Assembly (NCBI RefSeq): GCF_988243305.1
Contig: NZ_OZ547136.1
Direction: 5' to 3' (one strand)
Length of the DNA stretch: 64,000 nucleotides
The notes beneath the pieces are model-generated. The model ran no database searches and was not told where the DNA came from. It was given only the letters and a program-made list of their open reading frames with translations. Every line of letters begins with the position of its first letter. The stretch's first letter is position 1. Shown here one piece after another: positions 24,522-38,940 of this stretch. The translations under genes and the position numbers were made by a program.

Positions 24522-25479
24522 ATGACAAACTTCACAACCAGCACGCCGCATGACGCATTATTTAAATCCTTTCTCACGCACCCTGACACCGCGCGGGATT
24601 TTATGGAGATCCACTTACCCAAAGATTTACGTGAACTGTGCGATCTCGACAGCTTAAAACTGGAATCCGCAAGCTTCGTCGATGAAAAATTGCGGGCGCT
24701 ACACTCCGATATTCTGTGGTCGGTAAAGACCCGTGAAGGTGATGGTTATATTTACGTAGTGATTGAACATCAGAGCCGCGAGGATATCCATATGGCCTTT
24801 CGCCTGATGCGATATTCCATGGCGGTGATGCAGCGCCATATCGAGCATGATAAACGCCGGCCGCTACCGCTGGTCATCCCGATGCTGTTTTATCACGGTA
24901 GCCGTAGTCCTTATCCCTGGTCTTTGTGCTGGCTGGACGAATTTGCCGACCCGACTACTGCACGGAAGCTTTATACTGCAGCGTTCCCGCTGGTGGATGT
25001 CACTGTCGTGCCGGACGACGAGATTGTGCAGCACCGCAAAGTCGCCCTGTTGGAGTTGATCCAAAAGCATATTCGCCAGCGCGATCTAATGGGACTTACT
25101 TGATCAACTGGCAGTATTACTGGTTACAGGGTGCGCTAATGACAGCCAGATAACCGCGCTGTTAAATTACATTTTACTGACTGGCGATGAAGCGCGTTTT
25201 AAAGAGTTTATCAGCGAACTAACCAGTCGAATGCCACAACAAAGGGAGCGAATAATGACGATTGCAGAGCGAATTCATAATGATGGATGGCTGTTGGGAA
25301 GGGAGAGGGGGAGGAAAGAAGGGAAAGTAGAAGGGGAACGGAGCCTCCTCCGATTGTTGTTGCAGAATGGGGCCGATCCTGAATGGATACAACGATATAC
25401 CGGACTTTCGGCAGAGCAAATGCAGGCATTAGATCAGCCCTTGCCTGAAAGCAAGCGTGATCCATGGATCGAGTACTAA
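24522..25479 (+). pseudogene. rpnD: Recombination-promoting nuclease RpnD (PD-(D/E)XK, transposase_31 family), split by a frameshift
   Basis: The N-terminal 193 aa ([26 protein letters not shown]...VIEHQS) stop at 25103. The reading frame continues without a stop in another frame from ~25100 ([63 protein letters not shown]...) to 25479. The shift point is ggacttacttgatcaa, near 25092-25105. This corresponds to K-12 yjiP/yjiQ. Confidence 0.8.
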
Positions 25480-25721: not shown

Positions 25722-27134
25722 TTATTCCATTGCCCGATACACGGCCTCGCCAATTTGCTTCAGTGCTTCGCGATAGGTTTCGCTGAGCGGCAAAGCGCAG
25801 TTGATGCGCAGACAATTACGGTATTTGCCGGAAGCTGAGAAAATCGAGCCTGCCGCCACCTGGATTTTCATGCGGTACAGCTGCCGCGCGACGCAGACCA
25901 TATCGACCTGTTCAGGCAATTCTATCCACAGTAAAAATCCGCCTTTCGGGCGCGTAATACAGATTTCGCAGGGAAAATATTCCCGTATCCAGCAGGTATA
26001 AAGCGCCAAATTGCGCTGATAGATCTGCCGCATCCGCCGGATATGGCGATGATAGTGACCTTCCAGCACAAACGTTGCCGCCGCCATTTGCGTGGACGGT
26101 ACATTAAAGCTGCTGATGGCGTATTTCATATGCATCAGTTTATCGTGATAACGCCCCGGTGCGACCCAACCCACGCGCAGGCCAGGTGCAATACTTTTAC
26201 TGAATGAGCTGCACAACAGCACTCGCCCGTCGATATCCCAGGAATGAATGGTCCGCGGGCGCGGATACTCCGTTGCCAGTTCGCCGTAGACATCATCTTC
26301 AAAAATCACAATATCATGACGCTGAGCGAGAGAGAGAACGGCCCGTTTGCGCGCGTCCGGCATAATAAATCCCAGCGGATTATTACAGTTTGGCACCAGA
26401 ATGATGCCTTTAATCGGCCACTGTTCCAGCGCCAGTTCCAGCGCTTCAACGCTGATGCCTGTTTCTGGATCGGTTGGGATTTCAATCACTTTCACGCCCA
26501 TGCCACGCAGCATCTGCATCGAACCGTAATAACAGGGGGATTCGACCGCGACAATATCGCCCGGTTTACACACCGCCATTAACGCCAGCGACATCGAGTT
26601 ATGGCAGCCGCTGGTGATGATGATGTCATCGGCAGTGACCACCGAGCCGCTGTCGAGCATCAGGCGGGCAATCTGCTCTCGCAACACTCGCTGACCGGCT
26701 AACAAGTCATAACCGAGAACGGTTTGCAGATTATGCTGCACCACCCGGCTTAGCTCCCGCCACAGCGGTTTCAGGCTGGGCGTTTCGACATCCGGCGTGC
26801 TTTTACTTAACGGAACAATGGAACTGTCGCTATGCGCCTCCAGCATATCCAGCACCTGATCCCACTGGGTAATTTCCACCGGGCGCTGCACCGGACGCGT
26901 CATCGGCGGCACTGGCGGCTGGGCTTTACGTTGTGCGACAAAATAACCCGAACGCGGCTGTGGGGTGATGAGCTTCATCGTCTCCAGCGTCTGATACGCC
27001 TGCTGCACGGTGCTGATGCTGACGCCGTGCTCCTGACTTAAGCTGCGCACCGACGGCAATTTCTCCCCGTGACGATACAGCCCCTGCTCAATCCGCTCGG
27101 CAAGCAGAGTCGCCAGATGTTGATAACGCGTCAT
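25722..27134 (-). CDS. yjiR: MocR-type regulator (GntR HTH fused to PLP aminotransferase-like domain)
   Basis: 470-aa ORF. It has an N-terminal GntR HTH (LPSVRSLSQEHGVSISTVQQAYQTLE) and a fold-type-I aminotransferase-like C-terminus (SFSKSIAPGLRVGW). Confidence 0.9.
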   Translation of the reverse strand: MTRYQHLATLLAERIEQGLYRHGEKLPSVRSLSQEHGVSISTVQQAYQTLETMKLITPQPRSGYFVAQRKAQPPVPPMTRPVQRPVEITQWDQVLDMLEAHSDSSIVPLSKSTPDVETPSLKPLWRELSRVVQHNLQTVLGYDLLAGQRVLREQIARLMLDSGSVVTADDIIITSGCHNSMSLALMAVCKPGDIVAVESPCYYGSMQMLRGMGVKVIEIPTDPETGISVEALELALEQWPIKGIILVPNCNNPLGFIMPDARKRAVLSLAQRHDIVIFEDDVYGELATEYPRPRTIHSWDIDGRVLLCSSFSKSIAPGLRVGWVAPGRYHDKLMHMKYAISSFNVPSTQMAAATFVLEGHYHRHIRRMRQIYQRNLALYTCWIREYFPCEICITRPKGGFLLWIELPEQVDMVCVARQLYRMKIQVAAGSIFSASGKYRNCLRINCALPLSETYREALKQIGEAVYRAME

Positions 27135-27310
27135 GCTGTATTCCTTATGTGGACCATACAGAGAGAAAAACCGGTACAGATGAGGCTAAAAAACCGGATG
27201 CAGATGCTGTTTTAACCTGTCTGTATGTTAAATAAAACTAATATTTGCATCTGTATTGTGAACTGCCAGAAGACGGATGATGAAGCCTCTGAAAGATGAG
27301 GAGGCAGCAG

Positions 27311-27475
27311 ATGGAATTTCACGAAAACAAAGCCAAAACGCCGTTTATCAGACTTGTGCAACTCTGGCAGGCGGTGAGGCGTTGGCGGCGGCAAATGCAG
27401 GCCCGGCGGGTGTTACAGCAGATGAGTGATGAGCGGTTGAGGGATATTGGGTTACGCAGGGAGGATGTGGAGTGA
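27311..27475 (+). CDS. yjiS: DUF1127 small protein YjiS
   Basis: Read by hand; at 54 aa it is below the ORF-track cutoff. It encodes MEFHENKAKTPFIRLVQLWQAVRRWRRQMQARRVLQQMSDERLRDIGLRREDVE and stops at TGA 27473-27475. It carries the DUF1127 signature ...L..MSD..L.DIG..R.D. Confidence 0.8.
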   Translation: MEFHENKAKTPFIRLVQLWQAVRRWRRQMQARRVLQQMSDERLRDIGLRREDVE

Positions 27476-27512
27476 TAGAGGATGTTGAGAATAAATCAGG
27501 ATATTAACTTTT

Positions 27513-27546
27513 TATATGTACCCAGGAAGAAACCAGGGTACATATA
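27513..27546. terminator. Strong hairpin between convergent yjiS and the AT-rich membrane gene (bidirectional terminator / island junction)
   Basis: The arm tatatgtacccagg (27513-27526) pairs with ccagggtacatata (27533-27546), giving 13 of 14 bp paired. The loop is aagaaa and the flanks are T/A-rich. Confidence 0.6.
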
Positions 27547-27550
27547 GATA

Positions 27551-28264
27551 TTAGTTGAATTTAATATCAGCAATCAATTTTTTGATATAATCTTCTGGTT
27601 TCATCTTTGTTTTTTCTTTTATTTGCTGATAAGTTTCTTTCTTAATGTTGATTTCAATTGTTTTATTTTTATTGATAATGCACGCAATTGGTAATAGTAG
27701 CAATAATGTAATAATTATAATTATAAGAATTATTTTTGAATTTCCATGTGAGTCCGATTCCTTCATTTTTTGGAATATTCTTCTCATGACTGGATTAACT
27801 GCTGAAGAAAACATAATCATAATGATAAAAACAGCCAAAAAATCTAATGTATATTTTGCGTAGTAACTTTCAGTATTCATCTCAAAAAACAGCAACCACG
27901 CCAGAGCACAAAACAATGTCATGCCAAAACATATAAATGAAATAATAAAGCCAATTTGTTGCGTTCTTTTATCTAGTTCAGAGAGAAATTTCTCACCAAC
28001 TCTTTGACCTTTATAAGGTGAAATAAGTGTGTGGGCGGCATTGAAAAATACATTTGTGCAAATCAAAACAAAGAATATATTGATTGGCATAAATCCTATA
28101 AGTGTATAAAAGAAGAAGTCTTGTTGAAGATAGTACGGTAATTGATTATCAACTTCCATTAACAATGTAAATATAAAACCGAAAGAAACATAAAAAAACA
28201 AACCTTCTTCACGTAATTTTTTAATGTATTTTTTGAATTTAAAATCTTTAATCATCTTCAGCAT
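27551..28264 (-). CDS. Orphan polytopic membrane protein (about 5 TM), very AT-rich, function unknown
   Basis: - The ORF is 237 aa with a good Shine-Dalgarno (aggaa, 5 nt before the ATG).
- The N-terminus is Lys-rich (MLKMIKDFKFKKYIKKLREE).
- Hydrophobic segments include FFYVSFGFIFTLLM, FFFYTLIGFMPINIFFVLICTNVFF, IGFIISFICFGMTLFCALAWLLFF, LDFLAVFIIMIMFSSAV and IILIIIIITLLLLLPIACII.
- The C-terminal tail is charged.
- I recognise no family motif. Confidence 0.7.
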   Translation of the reverse strand: MLKMIKDFKFKKYIKKLREEGLFFYVSFGFIFTLLMEVDNQLPYYLQQDFFFYTLIGFMPINIFFVLICTNVFFNAAHTLISPYKGQRVGEKFLSELDKRTQQIGFIISFICFGMTLFCALAWLLFFEMNTESYYAKYTLDFLAVFIIMIMFSSAVNPVMRRIFQKMKESDSHGNSKIILIIIIITLLLLLPIACIINKNKTIEINIKKETYQQIKEKTKMKPEDYIKKLIADIKFN

Positions 28265-28290
28265 AGCTATTCCTAATTGTAAACAATATG

Positions 28291-28316
28291 GCCGGGGTAG
28301 AAAGTGCGACCCCGGC
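28291..28316 (-). other. GC-rich hairpin between the hsdR stop and the membrane-protein gene
   Basis: The arm gccggggt (28291-28298) pairs with accccggc (28309-28316). No clear U-tract follows on the minus strand, so it could be an attenuating or stabilising hairpin rather than a full terminator. Confidence 0.5.
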
Positions 28317-28328
28317 TATCAACGTGTT

Positions 28329-31300
28329 TTATGTTGGCAAAGCAATTTTCCCCGTGAGCATATCAAACATCAGATAAGCAAAGCCCTTTGCCCGAACTGG
28401 ATCGGATAAATATTGCAACATAAATTCTTGCCGAGCGTCATTACTGTCCATTACAGCATTATCAACTGCCTGGAGGAAATCACCAAGAATCGCTTGTTCT
28501 GGCGGATTGTTTTTAATTTGTGTCATAACATTTTCATTTTCAGTTATTTTGTTATACACCGAAAAAGCATTGCTGATCATATCTTTCTCGGTCAAATGGT
28601 CGCTAATGAATAATTCATTCATCCGAGAAAGCACCTGCGATAAAAATTCCTCTTTTTTATCTTTCGCTTTTGCCGTACCAATATCATTACTTGCATCCAG
28701 CGTATAGTCAGGCGTTTCTTCCTGTAAACGTAAATCTTGCTCATGGATTTTCGATAAACGATAGTGACTCATCTCTACATTACTGAGATCAATTTCATCC
28801 TCTTCCAGACGTTGCTCATGCAGCAGCGGACGCAGATGACGGGCAAACAGGCTTAGCTTTTCCAGATCTTTGTCATCGTATTCGACGATCTGCGACATAA
28901 ATTCGTAAAAGCGAACAAAGCTGCCGAGATCTTTTTTGAATATTTCCAGACGATCTTTTTCCTGCTTACAGGCTTTAAAACTGTTTTCCGCATTAGTGAT
29001 TAACACCGTATCGCCCGTTTTTTTGGTGCGCTCGAACATCTCTTTGGCGGTCAGATAAGCGTCTATCGCCATCAGATAACGCTTTTTCCAGCGTTCTACC
29101 GCCGGTTTGCATATATTACTGATCGCTGCATTCGATTTATTTTTGATGAAGAATGCCTCGCAGAACTGCTCGACTTCATGCCACTGAAAGATCTGCGTGG
29201 CGCGCAGTTTTTCAAACAGATCGAAAACCTGCTGCGGATCGCTGACATCGGTCAGTTCCGCCGTCTGGAAATAGGGCTGGAACGCGCCGAGGATCTCGTC
29301 CGGATCGTTATAAAAATCGAGAACAAAAGTGCCTGATTCCGCTTTGCCCGGATAGGTGCGATTCAGGCGGGAGAGCGTCTGCACGCACTCGACGCCGCCG
29401 AGGGCTTTATCCACGTACATCGCGCACAGTTTCGGCTGGTCAAAACCGGTCTGGAATTTATTGGCGACCAACATGACCTGATAATCATCGCTGTCGAAGG
29501 CTTTGCGCATATCCCGCCCTTTCAGGCCGGGGTTCATGTTTATTTCAGTAAATTTCTGGTTTAACAATGCCAGGCTGTTATGGTCGCCTTCCTGGAATTC
29601 AACTTCCCCGGAAAACGCCACCATCGCGCTGATTTTCTGGTAATTGTTCTCGCTAATGTATTTATCAAACGCCAGCTTGTAGCGTACAGCGGCTTTGCGT
29701 GAACTGGTGACCACCATCGCTTTAGCCTGGCCGCCAAGCAGGTGCATCACATGTTTGCGGAAGTGCTCCACAATCACCTTCACCTTCTGCGAGATATTGT
29801 GGTCGTGCAGTGTCACCCACTGGTTGAGCTTAATCTTCGCCCGTTTGCTATCGACTTCGCGGTCTTTGTCTTCCAGCTTTTGCAGCAACTGATACGCCAC
29901 TTTGTAGTTGGTGTAGTTTTTCAGCACGTCGAGGATAAAGCCTTCTTCGATTGCCTGGCGCATGGAGTAGACGTGGAAGGCCTCAGGTTTATTGGTTTTT
30001 GACGCCGGTTCATCGGGACGTGGACGGCGACCAAAAAGTTCGAGGGTTTTGGATTTTGGCGTGGCGGTAAAGGCGTAGTAGTTCAGGTTACTGCTGCCTT
30101 TCCGGGCGGCAATGGTCGCATCCAGAATATCTTCTGACGACAGCACCACGTCATTATCCATTTCTTCGCTCATCAGCACTTCTTTAAGCTGACGGGCGGT
30201 GGAACCGCTCTGCGAGGAGTGCGCTTCGTCGGCAATCACCGCATATTTACGCTGCTTCAGGCTGACGCTGTTTTCGATTGCTTTCAGTACGAATGGGAAC
30301 GTCTGGATGGTGACAATAATGATCGGCTGCGAGTTTTCCAGCGCGCTGGCCAGCTTTTCCGATTTGGAGCCGTCGCCCTCTTTGTTATTGATGCGCCCGA
30401 CCACGCCGTCGGCGTGTTCGAACTGCCAGATGGTGTCCTGAAGCTGGTCGTCCAGCACCGTGCGGTCCGTCACCACGATAATGGAGTGGAACTGTTTTTC
30501 CCCGTTCACGTCGTACAGACGAGAAAGCTGGTGGGCGGTCCAGGCAATGGAGTTCGATTTACCGGAACCGGCGCTGTGCTGGATCAGGTATTTATGGCCG
30601 GTTCCTTCAATCGTCGCGGCCTCCAGCAGTTTGTTGACCACATCCCACTGATGATAACGCGGGAAAATCAGGCTCTCTTTCTTCGCTTTCAGCCCGTTCC
30701 ACTCCTCTTTTTCTTCAATATGCAAATGGACAAAACTGGCGAGGATTTTTAATAAGTTGTCCGGCAGCAGCACTTCATTCCACAGATAATCTGTGGCGTA
30801 GCGGTGGGTATCTTCGGGGATCTCGTTGCCTGCGCCGCCGTCTTTGGTGCCTTTGTTAAACGGCAGGAAGAAGGTGCTGTCACCCGCGAGTTTGGTGGTC
30901 ATAAAGACGTCATACTGGCTGACGGCAAAATGCACCAGCGCGCCGCGCTTAAAGGTCAGCAGCGGTTCCGGTTTATTGGTGGCGGGATCTTTCGGCAGGC
31001 GGGTCTTTTTGTACTGCGCAATGGCGTTCTGCACCGCCTGTTTGAATTCGGATTTCAGCTCCAGCGTGGCAATTGGCAGGCCGTTGATAAACAGCACCAG
31101 GTCGATGCGCCATTTTTTGGCTTTCACGCCCGTTTCTGCAAAGACGCTATTTGAGGCATACGGGCTGTAGACCAGTTCCGGCACGATACGGCAGATATTC
31201 TGCTGATAGCGCGCCAGCGTTTCCGGGTTGAGATTATGTTCCGGTTTAAACTGACACAGCGAAAAACGGGCATTGCGGATTTTCAGTCCGTGGCGAAGTA

Positions 31301-31592
31301 CGCCGAGCGTACCCCAGGTGCGCGACTGGATGTCGGTGGCGTTGCTGTCGGCTTTTTTTAACTGCGCAACCAGCGCGTCGAGGAAATGGCGCTCGGTGTC
31401 GTTGGGGTAAACGCGGGCGAATTTCTCCCACTCCTGTGGTTGGGTGATTTGTACAAAGAGCAGGGCGTCTTGTGCGTATAGCGCACGTTCACGATCGTAG
31501 CCGTCGCCTTTGCCGACAATCCAGCCTTTTGCTGCCATCTGCGCGATGATGTCGTTTTGTAGGTTGACCTCTTTTGCAATGTCGTTGCTCAT
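28329..31592 (-). CDS. hsdR: Type I restriction enzyme R subunit (HsdR)
   Basis: 1087-aa ORF. The N-terminal PD-(D/E)XK nuclease motif is WRIDLVLFINGLPIATLELK. The SF2 helicase motif I is QHSAGSGKSNSIAW and the DEAH box is VIADEAHSSQ. The start overlaps the hsdS stop by 4 nt. Confidence 0.93.
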   Translation of the reverse strand: MSNDIAKEVNLQNDIIAQMAAKGWIVGKGDGYDRERALYAQDALLFVQITQPQEWEKFARVYPNDTERHFLDALVAQLKKADSNATDIQSRTWGTLGVLRHGLKIRNARFSLCQFKPEHNLNPETLARYQQNICRIVPELVYSPYASNSVFAETGVKAKKWRIDLVLFINGLPIATLELKSEFKQAVQNAIAQYKKTRLPKDPATNKPEPLLTFKRGALVHFAVSQYDVFMTTKLAGDSTFFLPFNKGTKDGGAGNEIPEDTHRYATDYLWNEVLLPDNLLKILASFVHLHIEEKEEWNGLKAKKESLIFPRYHQWDVVNKLLEAATIEGTGHKYLIQHSAGSGKSNSIAWTAHQLSRLYDVNGEKQFHSIIVVTDRTVLDDQLQDTIWQFEHADGVVGRINNKEGDGSKSEKLASALENSQPIIIVTIQTFPFVLKAIENSVSLKQRKYAVIADEAHSSQSGSTARQLKEVLMSEEMDNDVVLSSEDILDATIAARKGSSNLNYYAFTATPKSKTLELFGRRPRPDEPASKTNKPEAFHVYSMRQAIEEGFILDVLKNYTNYKVAYQLLQKLEDKDREVDSKRAKIKLNQWVTLHDHNISQKVKVIVEHFRKHVMHLLGGQAKAMVVTSSRKAAVRYKLAFDKYISENNYQKISAMVAFSGEVEFQEGDHNSLALLNQKFTEINMNPGLKGRDMRKAFDSDDYQVMLVANKFQTGFDQPKLCAMYVDKALGGVECVQTLSRLNRTYPGKAESGTFVLDFYNDPDEILGAFQPYFQTAELTDVSDPQQVFDLFEKLRATQIFQWHEVEQFCEAFFIKNKSNAAISNICKPAVERWKKRYLMAIDAYLTAKEMFERTKKTGDTVLITNAENSFKACKQEKDRLEIFKKDLGSFVRFYEFMSQIVEYDDKDLEKLSLFARHLRPLLHEQRLEEDEIDLSNVEMSHYRLSKIHEQDLRLQEETPDYTLDASNDIGTAKAKDKKEEFLSQVLSRMNELFISDHLTEKDMISNAFSVYNKITENENVMTQIKNNPPEQAILGDFLQAVDNAVMDSNDARQEFMLQYLSDPVRAKGFAYLMFDMLTGKIALPT

Positions 31593-32992
31593 GCGCTGGC
31601 CTCCGTGGGTGTTTCTGCTTTGGGGATGGGGGCGGTCCAGTTGCGTAGGTCGATTTTTCCGGTGACGGCAGCGGAGATAAGGGCGGTGCGGCGTTCCTGG
31701 ATTAGCATTATTGCTTGATTGGTTTTAAATATTATGAGATCAATTTGTGCGCATTTTTCATTCAAGGCGTTGACGATTGATTGTGCTTCACCCAATGGGG
31801 GAAATATAAACTTGGTTGTTTTAAAGTCACCTAATGAAACTCTTTTTCTTGTTCCCTCAATACTAATGTTATTAATGGTTTGTCGCCCAAAATTTGAGTT
31901 CAATAGATATGCTATGAAATGTGCATTGAAGGTTTTTTTATTAACTCTTACTCTCATAACATCTTGCGTTATGACAGCATCTGGTTCATTTTTAGGATAA
32001 ACGCACGCTTCTCCTGGGGGATCTCCGACTTTTGAAAAAATCACATCATTTGAGGATAATTTACATATTTCAAGCTGTTGGGCTTTTTGATGAGTAACAT
32101 ATACAGTACTTTTTCTGTTATAACCTGTCGCTTTTATATCTCGAATGTATACGACAGGTACCCCTTCTTCTTTCAATTCACTTGCTAGTAAATCACTTCC
32201 AAATGGCCCATTTACGAAGCATCCTTTAGTTTCATCACCAGTATTGGCTAATTTACTCTTAAACCAGTGGGAGGGTGCTTCGCCTAATCCTGTTAAACCA
32301 GAATCTTTCATCGGCACATCAGGATTTAGCCCTTTGGTCACCGCATGGCTAATCACTGCCTGACGTTTTTCTTTAAGTAGTTCAATGAGTTGTTGTTGTT
32401 TCTCGATCAGGTCATCGATTTTTGCTGTTTCATGATCAAGGAAAAGTGCAATCTTAGAAGATTCATCATTACGAGGTTTTGGGCATTGTATATCGCCTAA
32501 AAGTTCAAGGTTTAAACCGTCTCGTAAATCACCGCCAGCCATGTTACGTATATTCTGATAATTAGAAATGAGCCACCAAAATATATAGCGAGATTGATTC
32601 TTTTTATACAATACAATGGCCGCCATGGATTGGTTACAAGTGGTATTAATACCAAGTTGTGCAACCATACCTTTGGTTTTTCCCTGCCCAGCTAAAGCGA
32701 CAACAAGTGCCCCTTTTGGTATCCACTTGGCACTACTATTTTCAAGTGCAGCGTTAGATATATATGTGGATGGCTCGACTATATAACCTTGATTTACTGC
32801 TCCAGAACTAATCCAGGGAACTGTACCATTCTCCCAATAATCAATAACATTTTTGGAGGGAGTTCCTCCTGCAAAAATATTGGATAGCCACCTCAGCTTA
32901 GTTTTTTTCCAGTTTAGTGGTAATTCATTACACCACTCCATCCCAGAATCCCTATACTCCGGATACGCCTGATATTTATTTAACCCCGCCAT
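31589..32992 (-). CDS. hsdS: Type I R-M specificity subunit (HsdS), two target-recognition domains
   Basis: 467-aa ORF. Two variable TRDs are separated by a conserved helical spacer (IALFLDHETAKIDDLIEKQQQLIELLKEKRQAVISHAVTKGL), with a matching C-terminal helix (LIQERRTALISAAVTGKIDLRNW). The ATG shares one base with the hsdM stop (TGATG). Confidence 0.92.
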   Translation of the reverse strand: MAGLNKYQAYPEYRDSGMEWCNELPLNWKKTKLRWLSNIFAGGTPSKNVIDYWENGTVPWISSGAVNQGYIVEPSTYISNAALENSSAKWIPKGALVVALAGQGKTKGMVAQLGINTTCNQSMAAIVLYKKNQSRYIFWWLISNYQNIRNMAGGDLRDGLNLELLGDIQCPKPRNDESSKIALFLDHETAKIDDLIEKQQQLIELLKEKRQAVISHAVTKGLNPDVPMKDSGLTGLGEAPSHWFKSKLANTGDETKGCFVNGPFGSDLLASELKEEGVPVVYIRDIKATGYNRKSTVYVTHQKAQQLEICKLSSNDVIFSKVGDPPGEACVYPKNEPDAVITQDVMRVRVNKKTFNAHFIAYLLNSNFGRQTINNISIEGTRKRVSLGDFKTTKFIFPPLGEAQSIVNALNEKCAQIDLIIFKTNQAIMLIQERRTALISAAVTGKIDLRNWTAPIPKAETPTEASA

Positions 32993-35346
32993 CAGGAATG
33001 TACCTCCTGCAACAGTTTCATAATCTCAGCGCTTACCGCATCCAAATCAGCATCAATCTCCTCCAACGGTCGCGGCGGTGTATAAACATAAAAATGACGA
33101 TTAAACGGAATTTCATACCCCACAATCCCGATATCCCCATCTTTCGCATCGCGTTTATCGGCATTGATCCACGCATCCGCAACATGCGGCAATACTTCCG
33201 CTTTGAAGTAATCCTCGATCAACTCGTTGGTAGATACCGCCGGATTTAACGGCACATTCTCGTTATCACGCAGGTCGCCATCCGATTCAAACTCCACAAC
33301 CTTTCCGTGGTACTCAAACGCGCCGTACAGCGGTTGGGGCGCTTCTTTCAGAACCTTGCTGATTACCGGCTCGGCGTCCGGGTTTTTGCGGGTGATAGCA
33401 TCGATAAACTGCTTGTTCTCTTTCGCATCCAGCTTCACGCCTGCGGTTCTGAGCGCCTCTTTCAGCGTCAACTGGAACTGATTAAAGTCATTGCTAACAG
33501 TCTCTTTGCCACCCGCCAGCATCCTCATCGCTGCCTGAATACGCCGCGCTTTTTCCATTAACCCGCGCTGGGCCAGCCATAATTTGCTGTCGAGCAGATC
33601 TTTAATTTGCTTCTCTTTCAGCTCGCTAAAATCGGCTTTAAGAATGGCGCGGGCTTCACTTTCTACCGCTGTTAAGTCGCCGTAATTACCGTCCTGCCAC
33701 TGGAAAGCAAAGGCGTCATACAGTTGCGCCATCGGCGCGTTAAACGGCTTCGGCGCAAAGCGCAATGTGGCAATGGCGTCATCACTTATCTGAGCCGACA
33801 GGCGTAACGGGCGCTCAACGGTGATGCGACGATAGCCAAACTCGGTGCTGTGAAAGACTTTGCTGGCAAAGGTTTTTGCCGCCTCGGTTTTGGTTGTTGC
33901 GGGCTGGCGTCCCCGGCTGGATTTTTGTTCGGGTGCTTTCTCCAGGCCTAACGCCGCAAGCGTAGTGGTGGCAACGGGTTCGAAATCGCCAAACGTGCGG
34001 GTGATTAAACCAATATCCTCCTCCCCGAGAATATTACGTTTTGATCCCAGCGATTTACGCATCTTTCCGCACAGGTTGCTGCCGTCGATTAGCTGGACTT
34101 TACCTTTGCGTTCTGGCGCTTTTTTGTTAGACAGCACCCAAACATAGGTAGCGATACCGGTGTTGTAAAACATATCGGTGGGCAGGGCGATAATGCCTTC
34201 CAGCAAATCCGCTTCCAGAATGTAGCGGCGGATCTCGCTTTCACCGCTGCCTGCGCCGCCGGTGAATAACGGCGAACCATTAAGAATGATGCCGATCCGT
34301 CCGCCACCGCTTTTGGCATCGCGCATTTTGCTGATCAGATGCAGCAGAAACAGCAACGAACCGTCGGAGACTCGGGGCAGGCCGGGGCCAAAGCGACCAT
34401 CAGCACCTTTGAGTTTGTGCTCGTTGTTGATGTCGGTTTCTATCTTTTTCCAGTCCACGCCGAAAGGTGGATTAGAGAGCATGTAATCGAATTTTTCTGC
34501 GGGGAGCTGATCGTTGGAAAGGGTGTTGCCGAGTTTGATAAGGCTGACATCCTGGCCCTTAATCAGCATGTCGGCTTTGCAGATGGCGTAGGATTCCGGG
34601 TTTAACTCCTGACCAAACGCGCGCATCACGGCATTGGGGTTTTGTTTGTGGACGTACTCCATGCCGGAGGAGAGAAAGCCGCCGGTTCCCGCCGTTGGGT
34701 CGTAAATGGTGCGAATGATACCGTCTTTATTGAGTGCATCATCATCATCGAAAAACACCAGCGAGGTGGTCAGATTGACGATATCACGCGGGGTAAAGTG
34801 CTCCCCGGCGGTTTCGTTAGAACTCTCGGCAAAACGTCGGATCAGCTCCTCAAATACCAGCCCCATATCGTGGTTGGTGACGTGCTCCGGGTATAAATCT
34901 GCTTTAGCGAATATTTGCACCACTTTGAACAGTAAGTTTGCATCCGCCAGCTGTCCGACAAACTCGCTGAACTTGAAGTGTTCGAAAATTTCGCGGGCAT
35001 CCGAAGAGAACGACTGGATGTAGTTTTCCAGGTTGTCCTGTATGCCATTTTGCCCCATTTTGCTGAGATCCATCGCTGAGGCATTGAAGAACGTGAGGCC
35101 ATTAGTCGCCCGCAGGATCATTTTCTCCTGGGCTTCCTCCGGCAGTTTCATGGCTTTTACTTTTTGCGCCTCGGTAATGACCGCGTCTTTCGTTGTTTCG
35201 AGTACGCATTCCAGACGACGCAAAAGGGTAAAAGGAAGAATAATTCGTCCATATTGTGATTGTTTAAAATCGCCGCGTAACAGGTCGGCGACAGACCACA
35301 GGAAGGCTGCAATCTGGCTGAAATTAGTTGATGACATAAAAAGCAT
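32992..35346 (-). CDS. hsdM: Type I R-M N6-adenine methyltransferase subunit (HsdM), unusually long (784 aa)
   Basis: The HsdM N-terminal domain reads [38 protein letters not shown]. The AdoMet motif is [12 protein letters not shown] and the catalytic motif IV is LSNPPFG. About 250-300 extra residues lie between the MTase core and a conserved-looking C-terminal tail ([33 protein letters not shown]). Confidence 0.9.
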
Positions 35347-35621: not shown

Positions 35622-37721
35622 ATGAAAGCCACCGAAGCCCGATTACTCGATTTTCTAAAACGCTCTCAGCAATTCGTTATTCCCATTTATCAGCGTACTT
35701 ATTCATGGTCAGAGGAACAGTGCCGCCAGCTCTGGGACGATGTAATACGTGCCGGGCAGCGTGATGATATCCCGGCGCATTTTATCGGCTCGGTGGTGTA
35801 TATCGAACAGGGCCTATATCAGGTTTCGGGGATCTCTCCCTTACTGGTGATTGACGGTCAGCAACGCCTGACAACGGCGATGTTATTGCTGGAAGCGTTG
35901 TCCAGACACCTTGGCGATGACGAGGTGATGGATGGTTTCTCCGCCATGAAATTACGAAACTATTATCTGCTCAATCCGTATGAATCGGGCGAGCGTGGAT
36001 TTAAGTTACTGCTTACGCAAACGGACAGAGAGAGCCTGCTGGCATTGATTAGACAAAAACCGCTGGCAGAAAATTGCTCTCTACGCGTGAAAGAGAATTT
36101 TGAGTTTTTCCATGAGCAAATAGGCAAACTCCACGGCAATTTCACCGCGTTATGTCAGGGCCTTTCCAAACTGCTGATTGTGGATGTCGCCTTGAATCGC
36201 GGTCAGGATAATCCGCAACTAATCTTTGAAAGCATGAACTCAACAGGAAAAGCGCTGAGTCAGGCGGATCTAGTACGCAACTATGTTCTGATGGGGCTGG
36301 AGCCAGAACATCAAAGCCAACTGTACGACGATTACTGGCGGCCCATGGAGCTGGCGTTTGGTCAGAAGGGATACACTGACTATTTCGACAGTTTTATGCG
36401 TAATTACCTGACGGTAAAAACAGGTGAGATTCCGCGAATTGGTGATGTCTATGAAGCCTTTAAACGCTATGCGCGAAAACCTGGCGTAATAGATAGCGGG
36501 ATGGAGGCGCTGGTTGCGGATATTCGTACCTATGCGGATTATTTTTGTGCGATGGCGCTGGATAGCGAAAAAGACAAAATATTAAAGATGGCGTTTCAGG
36601 ATCTACGTGAGCTGAAAGTCGATGCCGCCTGGCCGTTCCTGTTGGTGCTTTATCACGACTATAAACAGGGAATTCTTTCTGCCGCGGATTTTTTAAGTGC
36701 CACGCGTTTAATTGAGTCGTATATCTTCCGGCGCGCAGTCTGTGCCATTCCCACTAACTCATTTACTAAAACCTTCGCCACGTTTTACAAAGTGCTGGAT
36801 AAAGAGCGTTATCTGGAGAGCATTGCGGCACATTTGCTGGAACTGCCTTCCTACCGTCGTTTCCCGGATGATGATGAATTTCAACGTGAACTGAAAACTC
36901 GCGACCTCTACAACTTCCGTAATCGCAGCTATTGGCTACGTAGATTTGAAAACCACGATCGTAAAGAACGGGCCTATGTTGACACTTATACGATTGAACA
37001 TATCATGCCGCAGAACCCTAATTTATCGGCGAAGTGGCGCGATGACCTTGGTCCGGAATGGAAGCGAATCCATAAAAAGTGGCTCCATACGTTGGGTAAT
37101 TTAACGTTAACTGGCTATAACTCAAGCTACAGCGACCGTCCATTTGCGAAGAAGCGAGATATAAAAGGTGGCTTTAAGGAAAGTCCATTACGCCTGAACA
37201 CGGGGTTAGGGCAATGTGAAATATGGGATCGTGCAGCGATACAAAAGAGAGCGGAACGTCTGTCCGAGCTGGCAATAGACGTCTGGGCGATCCCCAAACT
37301 TTCGGAAGACGTGTTGGCTCGTTATCGCACCGTCGTTGAACGAGGAACGGGATATGTCCTTGCTGATTTCCCGCAACTTGAAGAAGGTACGCACATCCGC
37401 GTACTTTTTGACAGCCTTTCTGATGCCGTTATGACGCTGGACGCTGGGGTTACGCGAGAAATATTGAAGCTCTATGTTGCCTTCAAAGCGGAGACGAATT
37501 TTGTTGATGTGGTGCCGCAAAAAAGTCGCTTACGTTTATCACTAAATATGCCATTCCATGAACTGGTTGACCCAAAATGTATGGCTAAAGATGTCACAGA
37601 TATAGGCCGTTGGGGCAATGGCGATGTTGAAATAGGTTTCAGCGATCTTTCTGAGCTTCCTTATGTGATGGGATTAATTCGTCAGGCATTTGAAAAGCAG
37701 ATGGATAACGCGATGGTTTAA
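35622..37721 (+). CDS. GmrSD/BrxU/SspE-like type IV restriction-type protein (DUF262 ParB-like NTPase + DUF1524 His-Me nuclease + extra C-terminal domain)
   Basis: - The ORF is 699 aa with a caggag Shine-Dalgarno.
- The DUF262 signatures are FVIPIYQRTYSWSEEQCRQLWDD and VIDGQQRLTT.
- The DUF1524 signatures are YTIEHIMPQNP and HTLGNLTLTGYNSSYSDRPF.
- About 150 aa of C-terminal extension is unassigned.
- The gene is divergent from hsdM. Confidence 0.85.
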   Translation: MKATEARLLDFLKRSQQFVIPIYQRTYSWSEEQCRQLWDDVIRAGQRDDIPAHFIGSVVYIEQGLYQVSGISPLLVIDGQQRLTTAMLLLEALSRHLGDDEVMDGFSAMKLRNYYLLNPYESGERGFKLLLTQTDRESLLALIRQKPLAENCSLRVKENFEFFHEQIGKLHGNFTALCQGLSKLLIVDVALNRGQDNPQLIFESMNSTGKALSQADLVRNYVLMGLEPEHQSQLYDDYWRPMELAFGQKGYTDYFDSFMRNYLTVKTGEIPRIGDVYEAFKRYARKPGVIDSGMEALVADIRTYADYFCAMALDSEKDKILKMAFQDLRELKVDAAWPFLLVLYHDYKQGILSAADFLSATRLIESYIFRRAVCAIPTNSFTKTFATFYKVLDKERYLESIAAHLLELPSYRRFPDDDEFQRELKTRDLYNFRNRSYWLRRFENHDRKERAYVDTYTIEHIMPQNPNLSAKWRDDLGPEWKRIHKKWLHTLGNLTLTGYNSSYSDRPFAKKRDIKGGFKESPLRLNTGLGQCEIWDRAAIQKRAERLSELAIDVWAIPKLSEDVLARYRTVVERGTGYVLADFPQLEEGTHIRVLFDSLSDAVMTLDAGVTREILKLYVAFKAETNFVDVVPQKSRLRLSLNMPFHELVDPKCMAKDVTDIGRWGNGDVEIGFSDLSELPYVMGLIRQAFEKQMDNAMV

Positions 37722-37764
37722 TATGGAATAATATCCTCTTTACCATGCAATCAAGGATCCTCTA

Positions 37765-38499
37765 ATGACAACCAAACTACTGGACCTGAGCTGGAATGCA
37801 AATGCCATCCCGGCGATGCAAATTGTCGGTACGCGCGCGGCCTTGTTTACCTTCAAAACGCATATGGCAGGGTTTGTCTGGGATGCCGCGCAACTGGAAA
37901 ATAACCCCTATACCTTTGTTGAAGTTAAAACGCTGCTCGATGGCGTCACCGTTGGCGGGCATAAGGTCAGTGATACTGAGCAGGTGTTGAACCTGGCAGA
38001 TAGCGCAAAAAAACTGATTGAACTTGTGCAATCCGGGCGTTTCGATCTTGATAAGAAAACGTTCACGTTGCTTAACGGCATTATTGCGCGTAATGAGGCG
38101 CTGGAGTGGGGCGTTTTTCGCGGCGAAGGTGATGAGTTACATTACAATGCGCGCGTTCACCTCGGCGAGTTGGGCACCCATTTCCCACCAGCCACAGAAG
38201 CAGGTGCACCTGAACTGAATCGAATATTCGCCGCAGGTGTGGCACAAATAAAAGAGATGCCACCGTTCGAAGGGGCGCTGGCAATGTTTTTATTTGGTGC
38301 TTATTTTCAGTTTTTCTTTGATGGCAACAAGCGTACCAGTCGCCATATGATGAACGGCTGGTTAATGCGCCACGGTTACAATCCCATTAGTGTACCCGCA
38401 GCTCGTGCGCTGGAGTTCAACAGCAAAATGGTGCGCTTTTATCACAGCAAAGATGCCAGTGAAATGATGGCATTTTTGGTGGATTGCTATCAGGTTTGA
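37765..38499 (+). CDS. Fic/Doc (Fido) superfamily protein with a degenerate, Doc-like core motif
   Basis: - The ORF is 244 aa with an aagga Shine-Dalgarno, 43 nt after the upstream GmrSD-like gene.
- A Fic-type N-terminal helix region is present (LENNPYTFVEVKTLLDGVTVGGHKVSDTEQVLNLADSAKKL).
- The core motif is QFFFDGNKRTSR (aa 182-193, nt 38308-38343), versus the canonical Fic HxFx(D/E)GNGRxxR and the Doc HxFx(D/N)(A/G)NKR. Confidence 0.75.
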   Translation: MTTKLLDLSWNANAIPAMQIVGTRAALFTFKTHMAGFVWDAAQLENNPYTFVEVKTLLDGVTVGGHKVSDTEQVLNLADSAKKLIELVQSGRFDLDKKTFTLLNGIIARNEALEWGVFRGEGDELHYNARVHLGELGTHFPPATEAGAPELNRIFAAGVAQIKEMPPFEGALAMFLFGAYFQFFFDGNKRTSRHMMNGWLMRHGYNPISVPAARALEFNSKMVRFYHSKDASEMMAFLVDCYQV

Positions 38500-38564
38500 A
38501 TAAGTGCTGGATGGTGTCCCAATGCTGCCATCCAGCCCCTTCATATCAACTTCCCTATCTTTTC

Positions 38565-38651
38565 CTAAAACGTGATGCTATTTCCAACATTCGAATCATC
38601 AGTGCACGAAAAGCAGATCGTAAAGAGAGGAATCGCTATGAGCATGGTTAA
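38565..38651 (+). pseudogene. brnT: 5'-truncated remnant of a BrnT (DUF497) toxin gene
   Basis: Read by hand in the frame of nt 38592. It encodes ...LKRDAISNIRIISARKADRKERNRYEHG and stops at TAA 38649-38651. IRIISARKA..KER..YE is the conserved BrnT C-terminus. Only about 30 of roughly 90 codons remain. The remnant overlaps the brnA-like start by 14 nt, as in intact brnTA operons. Confidence 0.65.
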
Positions 38652-38940
38652 ACATAAACGAGGGACCTCCTCTACACTCGATGTGCAGCATGAGGCCGAA
38701 TTGAAGGCGCTGGCGAATAAATTCGACGAAGAGATTGATTACAGCGATATCCCACCTTCCAGCGATGAGCAATGGTCTAACGCAGAACGCGGTAAGTTTT
38801 ATCGGCCATTGAAAACCCAGGCTTCGGTGCGTATTGATGCTGATGTGATGGAATGGCTGAAGCGACCTGGTAAAGGCTATCAAACTCGCCTGAACGCAAT
38901 TTTACGTGAAGCGATGCTGCGCGATCAGAACAAAAAATAA
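38638..38940 (+). CDS. brnA: BrnA-like antitoxin (DUF4415/RHH family), apparently orphaned
   Basis: 100 aa from MSMVKHKRG, with an agagagg Shine-Dalgarno; the track start at 38572 was rejected. The motif IDYSDIPPSSDEQWSNAERGKFYRPLKTQASVRIDADVMEWLKRPGKGYQTRLNAILREAM is typical of BrnA/DUF4415. Confidence 0.75.
   Translation: MSMVKHKRGTSSTLDVQHEAELKALANKFDEEIDYSDIPPSSDEQWSNAERGKFYRPLKTQASVRIDADVMEWLKRPGKGYQTRLNAILREAMLRDQNKK

Follow-up and report, generated by a model that had tools for sequence, protein, structure and literature searches.

A 237-aa ORF of very low GC content follows hsdR on the same strand in the stretch of 64,000 nucleotides analysed here (the window), and an earlier note, made from the sequence alone, had proposed it as a possible fourth gene of a restriction-modification (R-M) operon. 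What kind of gene is this ORF, and is it a part of the restriction operon or a neighbour of it?

The ORF between yjiS and hsdR

The genes of the locus were arranged in the order yjiR-yjiS-ORF-hsdR-hsdS-hsdM-GmrSD-Fic-BrnA-yjiA-btsT. The locus is the immigration control region (ICR) of E. coli, which extends from yjiS to yjiA, both known framework genes of the ICR (PMC3874165); the ICR literature that we found treats other cassettes. That the ORF lies in a defence-gene hot spot stands. On the minus strand, hsdM (32992 to 35346), hsdS (31589 to 32992), and hsdR (28329 to 31592; 1087 aa), all recognised by Pfam and PADLOC matches, form a type I cassette, and hsdR is the upstream neighbour of the ORF (27551 to 28264, minus strand). 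On its other side the ORF converges with yjiS (DUF1127; 27311 to 27475, plus strand; coordinates taken over from the annotated syntenic locus L001). A strong hairpin between the two convergent genes (27513 to 27546) was terminator-like for both, with a centroid energy of -18.8 kcal/mol and z=-4.8, and none of 200 shuffles folded as well.

The ORF is a real gene. Its stop-free run of 238 codons was about twice the longest run obtained from any of 2000 shuffles of the 714 nt (mean longest 51, maximum 115). The dN/dS of seven alleles ranged from 0.17 to 0.39 and was well under 1 in all 21 allele pairs; it was 3-5 times that of the neighbouring genes, and constraint on the ORF was 4-fold weaker than on hsdR and hsdM. 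Of the 30 E. coli copies sampled, 29 carried a CDS annotation and about 97% kept the full-length frame, and homologues in four other genera kept it at 20-42% identity. Truncated or frameshifted alleles were frequent: E. coli A20 and S. diarizonae had such copies, as did several of the Salmonella clusters. The ATG start was preceded by the Shine-Dalgarno sequence AGGAA (28270-28274, minus strand), with the ATG 5 nt further on; both elements were invariant in the allele comparison within Escherichia, and the Shine-Dalgarno was unchanged in 8 alleles. The position of the ORF, its strand, the 64-nt spacer behind hsdR, and the good ribosome-binding site were thus verified as first described. The absence of an obvious promoter was borne out as well, since a minus-strand search from 27100 to 28700 gave no sigma-70-like promoter.

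The STM4522 family and its positions

Using tblastn, the ORF was matched to STM4522 of Salmonella Infantis/LT2 with 37% identity over 93% coverage (E=4e-26), and phmmer with the ORF retrieved the proteins P0010, P0011, and P0013 at E=2e-38 to 2e-19. Membership in the STM4522-type family was supported by full-length similarity, by the position at the yjiS edge, and by shared architecture and low GC. The LT2 protein (233 aa, annotated as an 'inner membrane protein') is like the ORF product in length class, in its five hydrophobic segments and K.KPE.YI hairpin, and in the very low GC of its gene, which has the same ICR-edge position and orientation, convergent with yjiS. It differs in its upstream neighbour, which is symE past a type IA hsdR-M-S instead of the hsdR of an M-S-R cassette. 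In the Salmonella locus L018, STM4522 lay between symE and the convergent yjiS, and L020 and L023 were alike. By this comparison of sequence and position, the ORF was shown to be the Escherichia positional orthologue of STM4522.

Convergence with yjiS was observed in the window, L001, L018, L019, L020, and L023. In Pseudocitrobacter (L007) the order was hsdRMS-symE-ORF, as in Salmonella, and the position was kept with yjiS absent. In a further enteric contig (L003), an intact ORF was located between a C-terminal remnant of Mrr (80% identity, E=9e-27) and the same aldehyde dehydrogenase (90% identity); here hsdRMS-symE was deleted and yjiS was absent, and the position of the ORF was again kept. 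In S. diarizonae (L019) the order was yjiA-AraC-LysE-symE-frameshifted ORF-yjiS, with no hsd genes. Another locus, L022, was considered as a Salmonella case lacking hsd and was discarded, the gap there being a run of Ns. The gene keeps the yjiS-proximal edge of the ICR while the adjacent restriction cassette is exchanged, deleted, or absent.

More distant relatives in Enterobacter (20-25% identity; P0015, phmmer E=7e-7) were located between a gene of unknown function or a GFA gene and mmuP/mmuM-tauABCD, that is, in housekeeping surroundings. The earlier note had asked whether homologues recur beside R-M or other defence genes; they do so in the defence hot spot of four genera, but the Enterobacter relatives among housekeeping genes are in part what that note had said would speak against its reading. 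A conserved symE-ORF module was also considered and rejected, as the gene of about 148 aa located 5' of the Enterobacter homologues was unrelated to SymE.

The family is confined to Enterobacteriaceae. In Salmonella the gene is common, with thousands of sequences and large clusters (1398 and 772 member sequences, 2626 index blocks), versus a presence in only 2% of complete E. coli genomes. A scan of GTDB species representatives returned nothing with an Escherichia-centred alignment and one locus with a Salmonella-centred alignment. No homologue was found by tblastn in plasmids, and the sole match in a 'phages' collection was a bacterial (Salmonella) genome contig, with none in phage genomes; a plasmid or phage origin of the ORF was rejected on these grounds. 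A full-text literature search retrieved no paper naming STM4522. We also noted that yjiS is a conserved neighbour of the family in both Escherichia and Salmonella. YjiS is a peripheral inner-membrane protein, and the paper describing it does not discuss an STM4522-type product (PMC11707872). YjiS was considered as a partner of the ORF product and set aside: the co-immunoprecipitation partners in the same paper omit the product of the neighbouring gene, and about 69% of E. coli match the yjiS flank as opposed to the 2% that have the ORF. The map of the ICR thereby gains a conserved, uncharacterised resident at its yjiS edge, around which restriction cassettes swap.

The ORF had a GC content of 27.2% and a GC3 of 27.3%, as compared to 50.1% and 61.6% for the whole hsdR gene. 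The earlier note had described the composition as unlike that of the R-M genes and had taken the AT-richness to suggest separate acquisition. The difference was confirmed against hsdR as a whole, but not against its final ~700 nt (28329-29028), which were equally AT-rich (GC3 0.275 versus 0.616 for whole hsdR); the AT-rich block starts within hsdR, with no compositional break at the junction with the ORF. Moreover, GC3 was 0.23-0.36 in every family member of all genera, so that AT-richness is a trait of the whole STM4522-type family, and the dS of the ORF was equal or similar to that of hsdR. Because low GC is common to the family and the dS values agree, the composition is no sign of an acquisition separate from the cassette, and the separate acquisition proposed in the earlier note is not borne out. 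That GC3 is held at 23-36% in genomes of 50-55% GC, across genera that have diverged to 20-40% identity in protein, is unusual.

Linkage of the ORF to the hsdMSR cassette

The 64-nt spacer between hsdR and the ORF contained a GC hairpin (28291 to 28316, minus strand) with an 8-bp stem and a 10-nt loop, GCCGGGGT-10 nt-ACCCCGGC. The hairpin had been described as lacking a U-tract; it was found at exactly this position, but it was followed by CAUAUUGUUU, which amounts to a U-rich, although interrupted, tail. It missed the criteria of a terminator scan, the fold of its region was not significant (z=-1.4), and there was no covariation in its stem, as the changes across alleles were all uncompensated. 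The hairpin is at best a weak or leaky terminator. Since no promoter was predicted for the ORF itself and this weak hairpin was all that separated it from hsdR, transcription of the ORF by read-through from hsdR is plausible from the layout of the spacer. In every one of the other genera, a different hairpin separated the gene from its upstream neighbour. With a 64-nt gap, a shared strand, and no predicted promoter, the ORF in the window may well belong to the hsdR transcript.

The ORF was present in 114 of 5426 E. coli genomes, as was this hsdR, and the co-occurrence fits linkage. Within Escherichia, the ORF was always accompanied by this cassette (114/114 genomes, plus E. fergusonii), and because it never occurred without the cassette there, a lineage-specific functional coupling may exist. 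Co-occurrence with the same hsd family was found within Escherichia only and did not extend across lineages, and a sister hsdR, 79% identical, in the tRNA-Ile island of E. coli was followed by McrBC, not by the ORF. Orthologues kept their place beside a type IA hsdRMS-symE, beside an Mrr remnant, or beside no hsd genes at all, which speaks against the proposal of a fourth gene of the R-M operon. Judged from the arrangement of these loci, the ORF was shown to be independent of this hsdR family. Its place is fixed whichever restriction system adjoins, and it is therefore a neighbour, not a demonstrated part, of the restriction operon. For annotation, adjacency to hsdR at this locus is no evidence of a function in the operon, and the appropriate name for the gene product is STM4522-family inner-membrane protein rather than R-M accessory.

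The classic type I 'fourth gene' lies inside the type I R-M locus EcoprrI and encodes the anticodon nuclease PrrC, a soluble ATPase/nuclease that binds to its R-M enzyme and moves together with it. The ORF is similar to prrC as an extra same-strand gene in or adjoining hsd genes and as a candidate abortive-infection partner. However, its product is a membrane protein without a nuclease or NTPase motif, and its orthologues are not tied to any one hsd family.

The predicted protein and its possible roles

The protein had a Lys-rich N-terminus, five hydrophobic segments, and a charged tail of 40 aa, as first noted, the first segment being marginal in Escherichia alleles on the Kyte-Doolittle scale. 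The five segments were conserved across the family, with loops alternately rich, poor, rich, poor, and rich in K/R. From hydropathy and the positive-inside rule only, five TM helices with a cytoplasmic N-terminus were predicted. The best-conserved parts were TM1, loop 1-2, TM3, and the tail hairpin, and the conserved motifs LPYYLQQ, YY.KY, and the C-terminal K.KPE.YI all fell on the predicted periplasmic face. No catalytic-looking constellation was found among the conserved residues of the family. The C-terminal helix-turn-helix hairpin containing K.KPE.YI (residues 209-233; 27566 to 27640, minus strand) was the best-predicted and among the most conserved parts, with a mean BLOSUM62 column score of 2.40 versus 1.17 overall and with P223 and E224 invariant. 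The AF2 model was all-helical and of moderate quality only (pLDDT 68, pTM 0.54); its best confidence was reached in helices 209-219 and 223-232 of the tail (pLDDT ~80).

The protein is an orphan without an assignable family, and the earlier note's remark that it carries no recognisable family motif held in all searches: no curated family in Pfam, PADLOC, NCBIfam, or PHROGs matched it above threshold, and the fold searches gave no match above threshold. In Foldseek, the best match of the AF2 model (pLDDT 68) was at E=1.2 against PDB and at E=0.6, with no structural match, against the viral library BFVD; a sequence profile search of PDB returned one match only (E=0.04). Several sub-threshold Pfam candidates were rejected. 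MscS_TM (PF12794) and DUF898 (PF05987) reached 20.2 and 20.0 bits against a gathering threshold of 28 bits, in 2 and 3 of 12 family members respectively; being sub-threshold and inconsistent across the 12 members, these matches look compositional, reflecting TM segments. Gaa1, Cation_ATPase_C, and Frag1 gave scattered sub-threshold matches in at most 4 of the 12. SieB (PF14163) matched P0013 (19.1 bits) and P0018 (14.8 bits), a near-identical pair among the 12, below its gathering threshold of 26 bits, whereas the window ORF and the Salmonella protein gave no match. The PADLOC-DB 2.0 defence HMMs gave no match for the ORF at E<=0.1 and a single match, at E=0.12, for the 12 members. The suggestion of an abortive-infection or superinfection-exclusion effector of this R-M system was therefore not sustained, with no PADLOC match and SieB matches restricted to two related members below threshold. 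The ORF product does share with SieB and T4 Imm a small size, an AT-rich gene, a polytopic inner-membrane character, and the absence of enzymatic motifs, along with a sporadic distribution in a defence region; it differs in not being prophage-borne and in having no homologues in phage genomes and no BFVD match, and the sub-threshold match to Pfam SieB was confined to 2 of the 12 family members.

The 40 residues of the tail also resembled a ribbon-helix-helix protein (CopG/Arc/MetJ) in that an alternating hydrophobic strand is followed by two helices with a short turn between them, but the turn is M-K-P, not G-x-S/T/N. For six diverse tails, no match to RHH or SHOCT Pfam families was found at E<=10, and the positive-inside topology places the tail in the periplasm. 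An RHH tail is less likely on both counts but is kept as a possible alternative, in that the beta-alpha-alpha pattern of this Lys-rich tail also fits a cytoplasmic ribbon-helix-helix.

Taken together, the ORF is likely a gene that stands alone and encodes a small, polytopic protein of the inner membrane; in Escherichia it is the positional orthologue of STM4522, the uncharacterised 'inner membrane protein' of Salmonella. In E. coli it would be inherited together with the GmrSD/hsdM-S-R cassette, and this co-inheritance ties it to the cassette by position, not by a functional dependence that has been shown. It would probably be expressed by read-through of the weak hairpin past hsdR. DNA of 27% GC is a typical target of H-NS, and expression is therefore probably low. 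The product would most likely have a non-enzymatic role in binding or scaffolding on the outer side of the inner membrane, as suggested by the lack of catalytic-looking residues and by the conserved motifs on the predicted periplasmic face, and its task would most likely be related to the envelope rather than to DNA restriction. The gene may also have a defence role of its own, because it resides in a defence hot spot in four genera, often directly past the SymE toxin gene.

Such a role was weighed as an explanation in itself, in which the protein acts in the ICR independently of R-M and, through its periplasmic face, blocks the entry of phage DNA or protects against a membrane-targeting toxin, similar to superinfection-exclusion proteins or to immunity proteins against pore-forming bacteriocins. 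Residence in the hot spot of Escherichia, Salmonella, Pseudocitrobacter, and the fourth enteric contig agrees with it, as do the sporadic distribution (2% of the E. coli genomes and a single species representative in GTDB), the frequent truncated and frameshifted alleles, the constraint relaxed relative to hsdR and hsdM, the AT-rich gene, and the periplasmic location predicted for the conserved motifs. Nevertheless, neither PADLOC nor PHROG profiles matched, SieB scored 15-19 bits (cut-off 26) in two near-identical members only, phage genomes and plasmids contained no homologue, BFVD provided no match, and the Enterobacter relatives reside in a housekeeping neighbourhood. We regard this explanation as rather unlikely. 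Its extended form is a little more doubtful still: the STM4522 family would be a single-gene determinant of defence or exclusion, autonomous and so far unrecognised, that marks the yjiS edge of the ICR in Salmonella and Escherichia. Its five-TM protein would use the conserved periplasmic loops and the C-terminal hairpin to stop a phage genome from entering or to block a membrane-targeting toxin, and the gene would have been kept AT-rich and silenced by H-NS as its expression is costly.

That the ORF is a genuine fourth member of the hsdM-S-R operon, encoding an abortive-infection or regulatory membrane effector coupled to the type I enzyme, is very improbable. The shared strand, the 64-nt gap, the good Shine-Dalgarno, and the lack of a predicted promoter would all be expected of such a gene, and so would the perfect co-occurrence with the cassette in E. 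coli and E. fergusonii and a dS close to that of hsdR. Against it, orthologues occur past symE, beside another type I family, or with no R-M genes next to them, the 79%-identical sister hsdR lacks the ORF, constraint is 4-fold weaker than on hsdR and hsdM, the spacer hairpin has changed by uncompensated substitutions only, and a different hairpin precedes the gene in every other genus. We give even less credence to a decaying relic, a hitch-hiking remnant without present function in E. coli that is silenced by H-NS and close to pseudogenisation. The dN/dS of 3-5 times that of the neighbours, the truncated or frameshifted copies named above, and the lack of a predicted promoter could be read in this way, but dN/dS remained well under 1 in 21/21 pairs, the full-length frame was kept in ~97% of sampled E. 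coli copies and across genera, and the Shine-Dalgarno and ATG did not vary. If a defence or envelope role of the stand-alone gene is true, Salmonella, in which the gene is common, would offer an easy system for testing it.

Position and expression signals of the gene downstream of hsdR

The 237-aa ORF (27551-28264, minus strand, ATG start) lies 64 nt past the end of hsdR (28329-31592, minus strand; Pfam HSDR_N, ResIII/SWI2_SNF2, and T1R_D3), with an AGGAA Shine-Dalgarno sequence (28270-28274, minus strand) 5 nt ahead of the ATG, which confirmed the position reported in the earlier note. The minus-strand hairpin in the hsdR-ORF spacer (GCCGGGGT-N10-ACCCCGGC, 28291-28316) had been described as lacking a U-tract. 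The tail that follows it, CAUAUUGUUU, is an interrupted-U rather than a U-free sequence, but a consensus scan of 27100-28700 called no terminators and no minus-strand promoters. The spacer fold was no better than that of shuffled sequence (z=-1.4). Each genus carried a different hairpin between the stop codon of the upstream gene and the Shine-Dalgarno sequence, and all substitutions in the Escherichia hairpin were uncompensated (E. fergusonii had three, all in the 5' arm, and A20 and AR_0089 had one each), so covariation support for a conserved RNA structure was not found there. The ORF and yjiS are convergent, and the strong hairpin between them (27513-27546; -18.8 kcal/mol, z=-4.8, 0/200 shuffles as stable) is probably a terminator common to both. 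Since no promoter was predicted, read-through from hsdR would be the simplest route of ORF expression in E. coli; a shared transcript would not by itself make the ORF a functional part of the restriction-modification (R-M) system. Two promoter-like plus-strand sites were located antisense within the ORF (27688-27715 and 27795-27823), a number not above shuffles (mean 5.8). AT-rich DNA is expected to contain such sites, which could cause spurious transcription within the gene.

Selection and base composition

When the 714 nt of the ORF were shuffled 2000 times, the longest run without a stop codon had a mean of 51 codons and a maximum of 115, compared with 238 observed; the length of the ORF is thus far beyond chance. 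Seven alleles (five E. coli, one E. fergusonii, and one metagenomic) were compared in 21 pairs, and dN/dS was 0.17-0.39 in all 21, versus 0.054-0.087 for hsdR and 0.046-0.097 for hsdM, indicating purifying selection about 4 times more relaxed than that on the R-M genes. The Shine-Dalgarno sequence and ATG were unchanged in 8/8 alleles. The ORF is a real gene. Decay was also seen: the reading frame was lost in strain A20, which in addition carries frameshifts in hsdS and GmrSD, and truncated clusters of the family were found.

The contrast in composition with the R-M genes was borne out, with 27.2% GC (GC3 27.3%) in the ORF against 50.1% (GC3 61.6%) in hsdR. The separate acquisition read from this contrast did not hold. 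Every family member was AT-rich (GC 0.26-0.34, GC3 0.23-0.36) in loci of 47-55% GC, so low GC is a long-standing property of the family and no sign of acquisition apart from the cassette. The dS of the ORF (0.05-0.24) matched that of hsdR (0.09-0.27), indicating that the ORF shared the history of the cassette rather than arriving separately. The AT-rich block of the window begins inside hsdR, ahead of the ORF: the last ~700 nt of hsdR (28329-29028) had a GC of 0.40 and a GC3 of 0.275, versus 0.616 for the whole gene. hsdS was likewise AT-rich (GC3 0.325). GC3 amelioration was not seen among family members (metagenomic contig L003, Pseudocitrobacter, the distant Enterobacter-type loci L010 and L011, Salmonella Infantis, and the window): GC3 kept to the same range in genomes of 50-55% GC despite protein divergence to 20-42% identity. 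A further AT-rich stretch (18000-19250, GC 0.31-0.35) lies upstream of the yji genes.

Homologues and their neighbours

The window comes from E. coli: its btsT and those of E. coli strains share 99.5% identity. The locus is the immigration control region, where yjiS and yjiA form the published framework that brackets alternative restriction cassettes (PMC3874165). The ORF was present in 114 of 5426 complete E. coli genomes, and the same number carried this hsdR (95-99% identity). The order GmrSD/hsdM-S-R/ORF/yjiS was found in every E. coli allele inspected, and also in E. fergusonii. Two further E. coli genomes had a sister hsdR of 79% nucleotide identity. In H80, the one of these that was inspected (locus L006; E. 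coli GDSC2227PM), the sister hsdM-hsdS-hsdR cassette (5676-15913 of L006) lay in a tRNA-Ile island, and 30 nt past hsdR came a McrBC-like pair instead of the ORF. The pair consists of a same-strand AAA ATPase and a McrC-family gene, making this locus a candidate combined type I and McrBC-like operon.

Outside Escherichia, the adjoining genes differed. In Salmonella Infantis SARB27, a 37%-identical homologue, equated with LT2 STM4522 in the notes of the record, had symE (STM4523) on one side and convergent yjiS (STM4521) on the other, with mrr and type IA hsdR-hsdM-hsdS genes lying upstream; two further loci (L020 and L023) had the same arrangement. Pseudocitrobacter faecalis had the order btsT-yjiX-yjiA-mrr-hsdR-hsdM-hsdS-symE-homologue, followed by a convergent aldehyde dehydrogenase. 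In metagenomic contig L003, that aldehyde dehydrogenase (90% identity) again lay downstream. Nothing preceded the intact homologue there except REP-like repeats and the final 49 codons of an mrr gene, with 80% identity to the Mrr of Salmonella (E=9e-27); the entire hsdRMS-symE block is deleted here and the homologue survives. In S. enterica subsp. diarizonae, the region carried no hsd genes and had the order yjiA-AraC-LysE-symE-homologue (frameshifted)-yjiS. In one Salmonella assembly (L022, 6762-8911), N runs fell exactly at the expected hsd site, leaving presence or absence of hsd unreadable. The most distant relatives (20-25% identity), in Enterobacter bugandensis and a genome labelled Pantoea agglomerans, had on one side a 148-aa gene, in some cases accompanied by a GFA-family gene, and on the other mmuP/mmuM-tauABCD, an ordinary chromosomal neighbourhood. 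Distant Enterobacter members overlapped the GFA-family (PF04828) gene by 4 nt (L008 1385-2484, L010 9645-10744), suggesting translational coupling; in locus L011, the GFA gene was missing from an otherwise identical neighbourhood. This comparison indicated that the constant element is a place at the yjiS edge of the immigration control region, and that the adjoining restriction system is variable or absent.

The ORF had no match above threshold in Pfam, PADLOC, NCBIfam, or PHROGs, in agreement with the orphan status assigned to it. Scanning 12 family members gave scattered sub-threshold matches, spread over 13 unrelated membrane families of which none was hit by more than 4 members, and essentially no PADLOC matches. 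SieB matches, which would have favoured superinfection exclusion, scored 15-19 bits, below the 26-bit cut-off, in only two Pseudocitrobacter-type sequences, and were rejected. Exhaustive phmmer over 1.84 billion representatives returned only 10 proteins. Word-seeded searches recovered Escherichia sequences at least 86% identical and a handful of 20-42%-identical Enterobacteriaceae relatives, and Salmonella seeds recovered large Salmonella clusters (1398 and 772 members, 2626 index blocks) named 'Inner membrane protein' in UniRef. Homologues on plasmids or in phage genomes were not found. Salmonella STM4522 is the closest relative; no paper naming it turned up in a full-text literature search, and the YjiS paper treats flanking genes only as polar-effect artefacts (PMC11707872).

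The Lys-rich N-terminus, five hydrophobic segments, and charged 40-residue tail of the protein were all confirmed. Hydropathy gave five segments across the family, with K/R counts alternating from the N-terminus (7-9) through successive loops (1, 5-8, 1-2, and 2-5); by the positive-inside rule, an N-in, C-out topology is predicted. AF2 with a 12-sequence alignment gave an all-helical model (pLDDT 68, pTM 0.54). Conservation peaked in TM1, loop 1-2 (LPYYLQQ), TM3, and a C-terminal helical hairpin (K.KPE.YI), and was lowest in the predicted cytoplasmic loops and TM4/5. The invariant or near-invariant positions were hydrophobic, Gly, Cys, Tyr, Gln, Lys, and a Pro-Glu pair, and no catalytic-looking set was found among them. 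This pattern favours a non-enzymatic membrane protein whose working surface would face the periplasm. A ribbon-helix-helix tail, suggested by a strand-helix-turn-helix pattern, would be a less likely alternative: it was supported by no profile, and the predicted topology speaks against it.

The earlier note had proposed a fourth gene of the R-M operon, possibly an abortive-infection or superinfection-exclusion effector. The classical fourth gene of a type I locus is PrrC in EcoprrI, a soluble nuclease that accompanies its R-M partner. Unlike PrrC, the ORF was not tied to an R-M partner in the co-occurrence test: homologues in the immigration control region do lie in a defence hot spot, but the R-M neighbour varies or is absent and the distant relatives lie elsewhere. 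Superinfection-exclusion or immunity-type membrane proteins may offer a functional analogy, membership not being demonstrated. The proposal stands at best in part, as to orphan status, defence-island site, and possible co-transcription, and not as to functional coupling or separate acquisition. The ORF belongs to the STM4522 family as an uncharacterised conserved hypothetical gene and had been annotated before; it gives a useful annotation correction and a modestly interesting gene rather than a new system.

Other features of the restriction region

The C-terminal ~230 aa of HsdR had no Pfam domain, and residues 1003-1082 matched PADLOC candidate PDC-S15 (E=1e-6); this AT-rich part, also present in the sister hsdR, resembles a module from another source fused onto hsdR. 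HsdM (784 aa, 3 residues longer than the 781 aa of other Escherichia alleles) had a ~320-aa C-terminal extension without a Pfam domain (32992-33960, the 3' third of hsdM). Ahead of yjiA lies a GmrSD-Fic-BrnA stretch (35622-38940). Its type IV enzyme GmrSD has 699 aa and an extra C-terminal DUF5655 domain (PADLOC PDC-S18-like); after it come a Fic-family gene (37765-38499) and, at 38572-38940, a BrnA-antitoxin-like ORF. GmrSD was split or pseudogenised in strain GF60. An Rpn/YhgA-like (Transposase_31) gene flanks the region in Escherichia, Salmonella, and Pseudocitrobacter, and is truncated in the window (24522-25103; 193 aa versus ~314 aa elsewhere).
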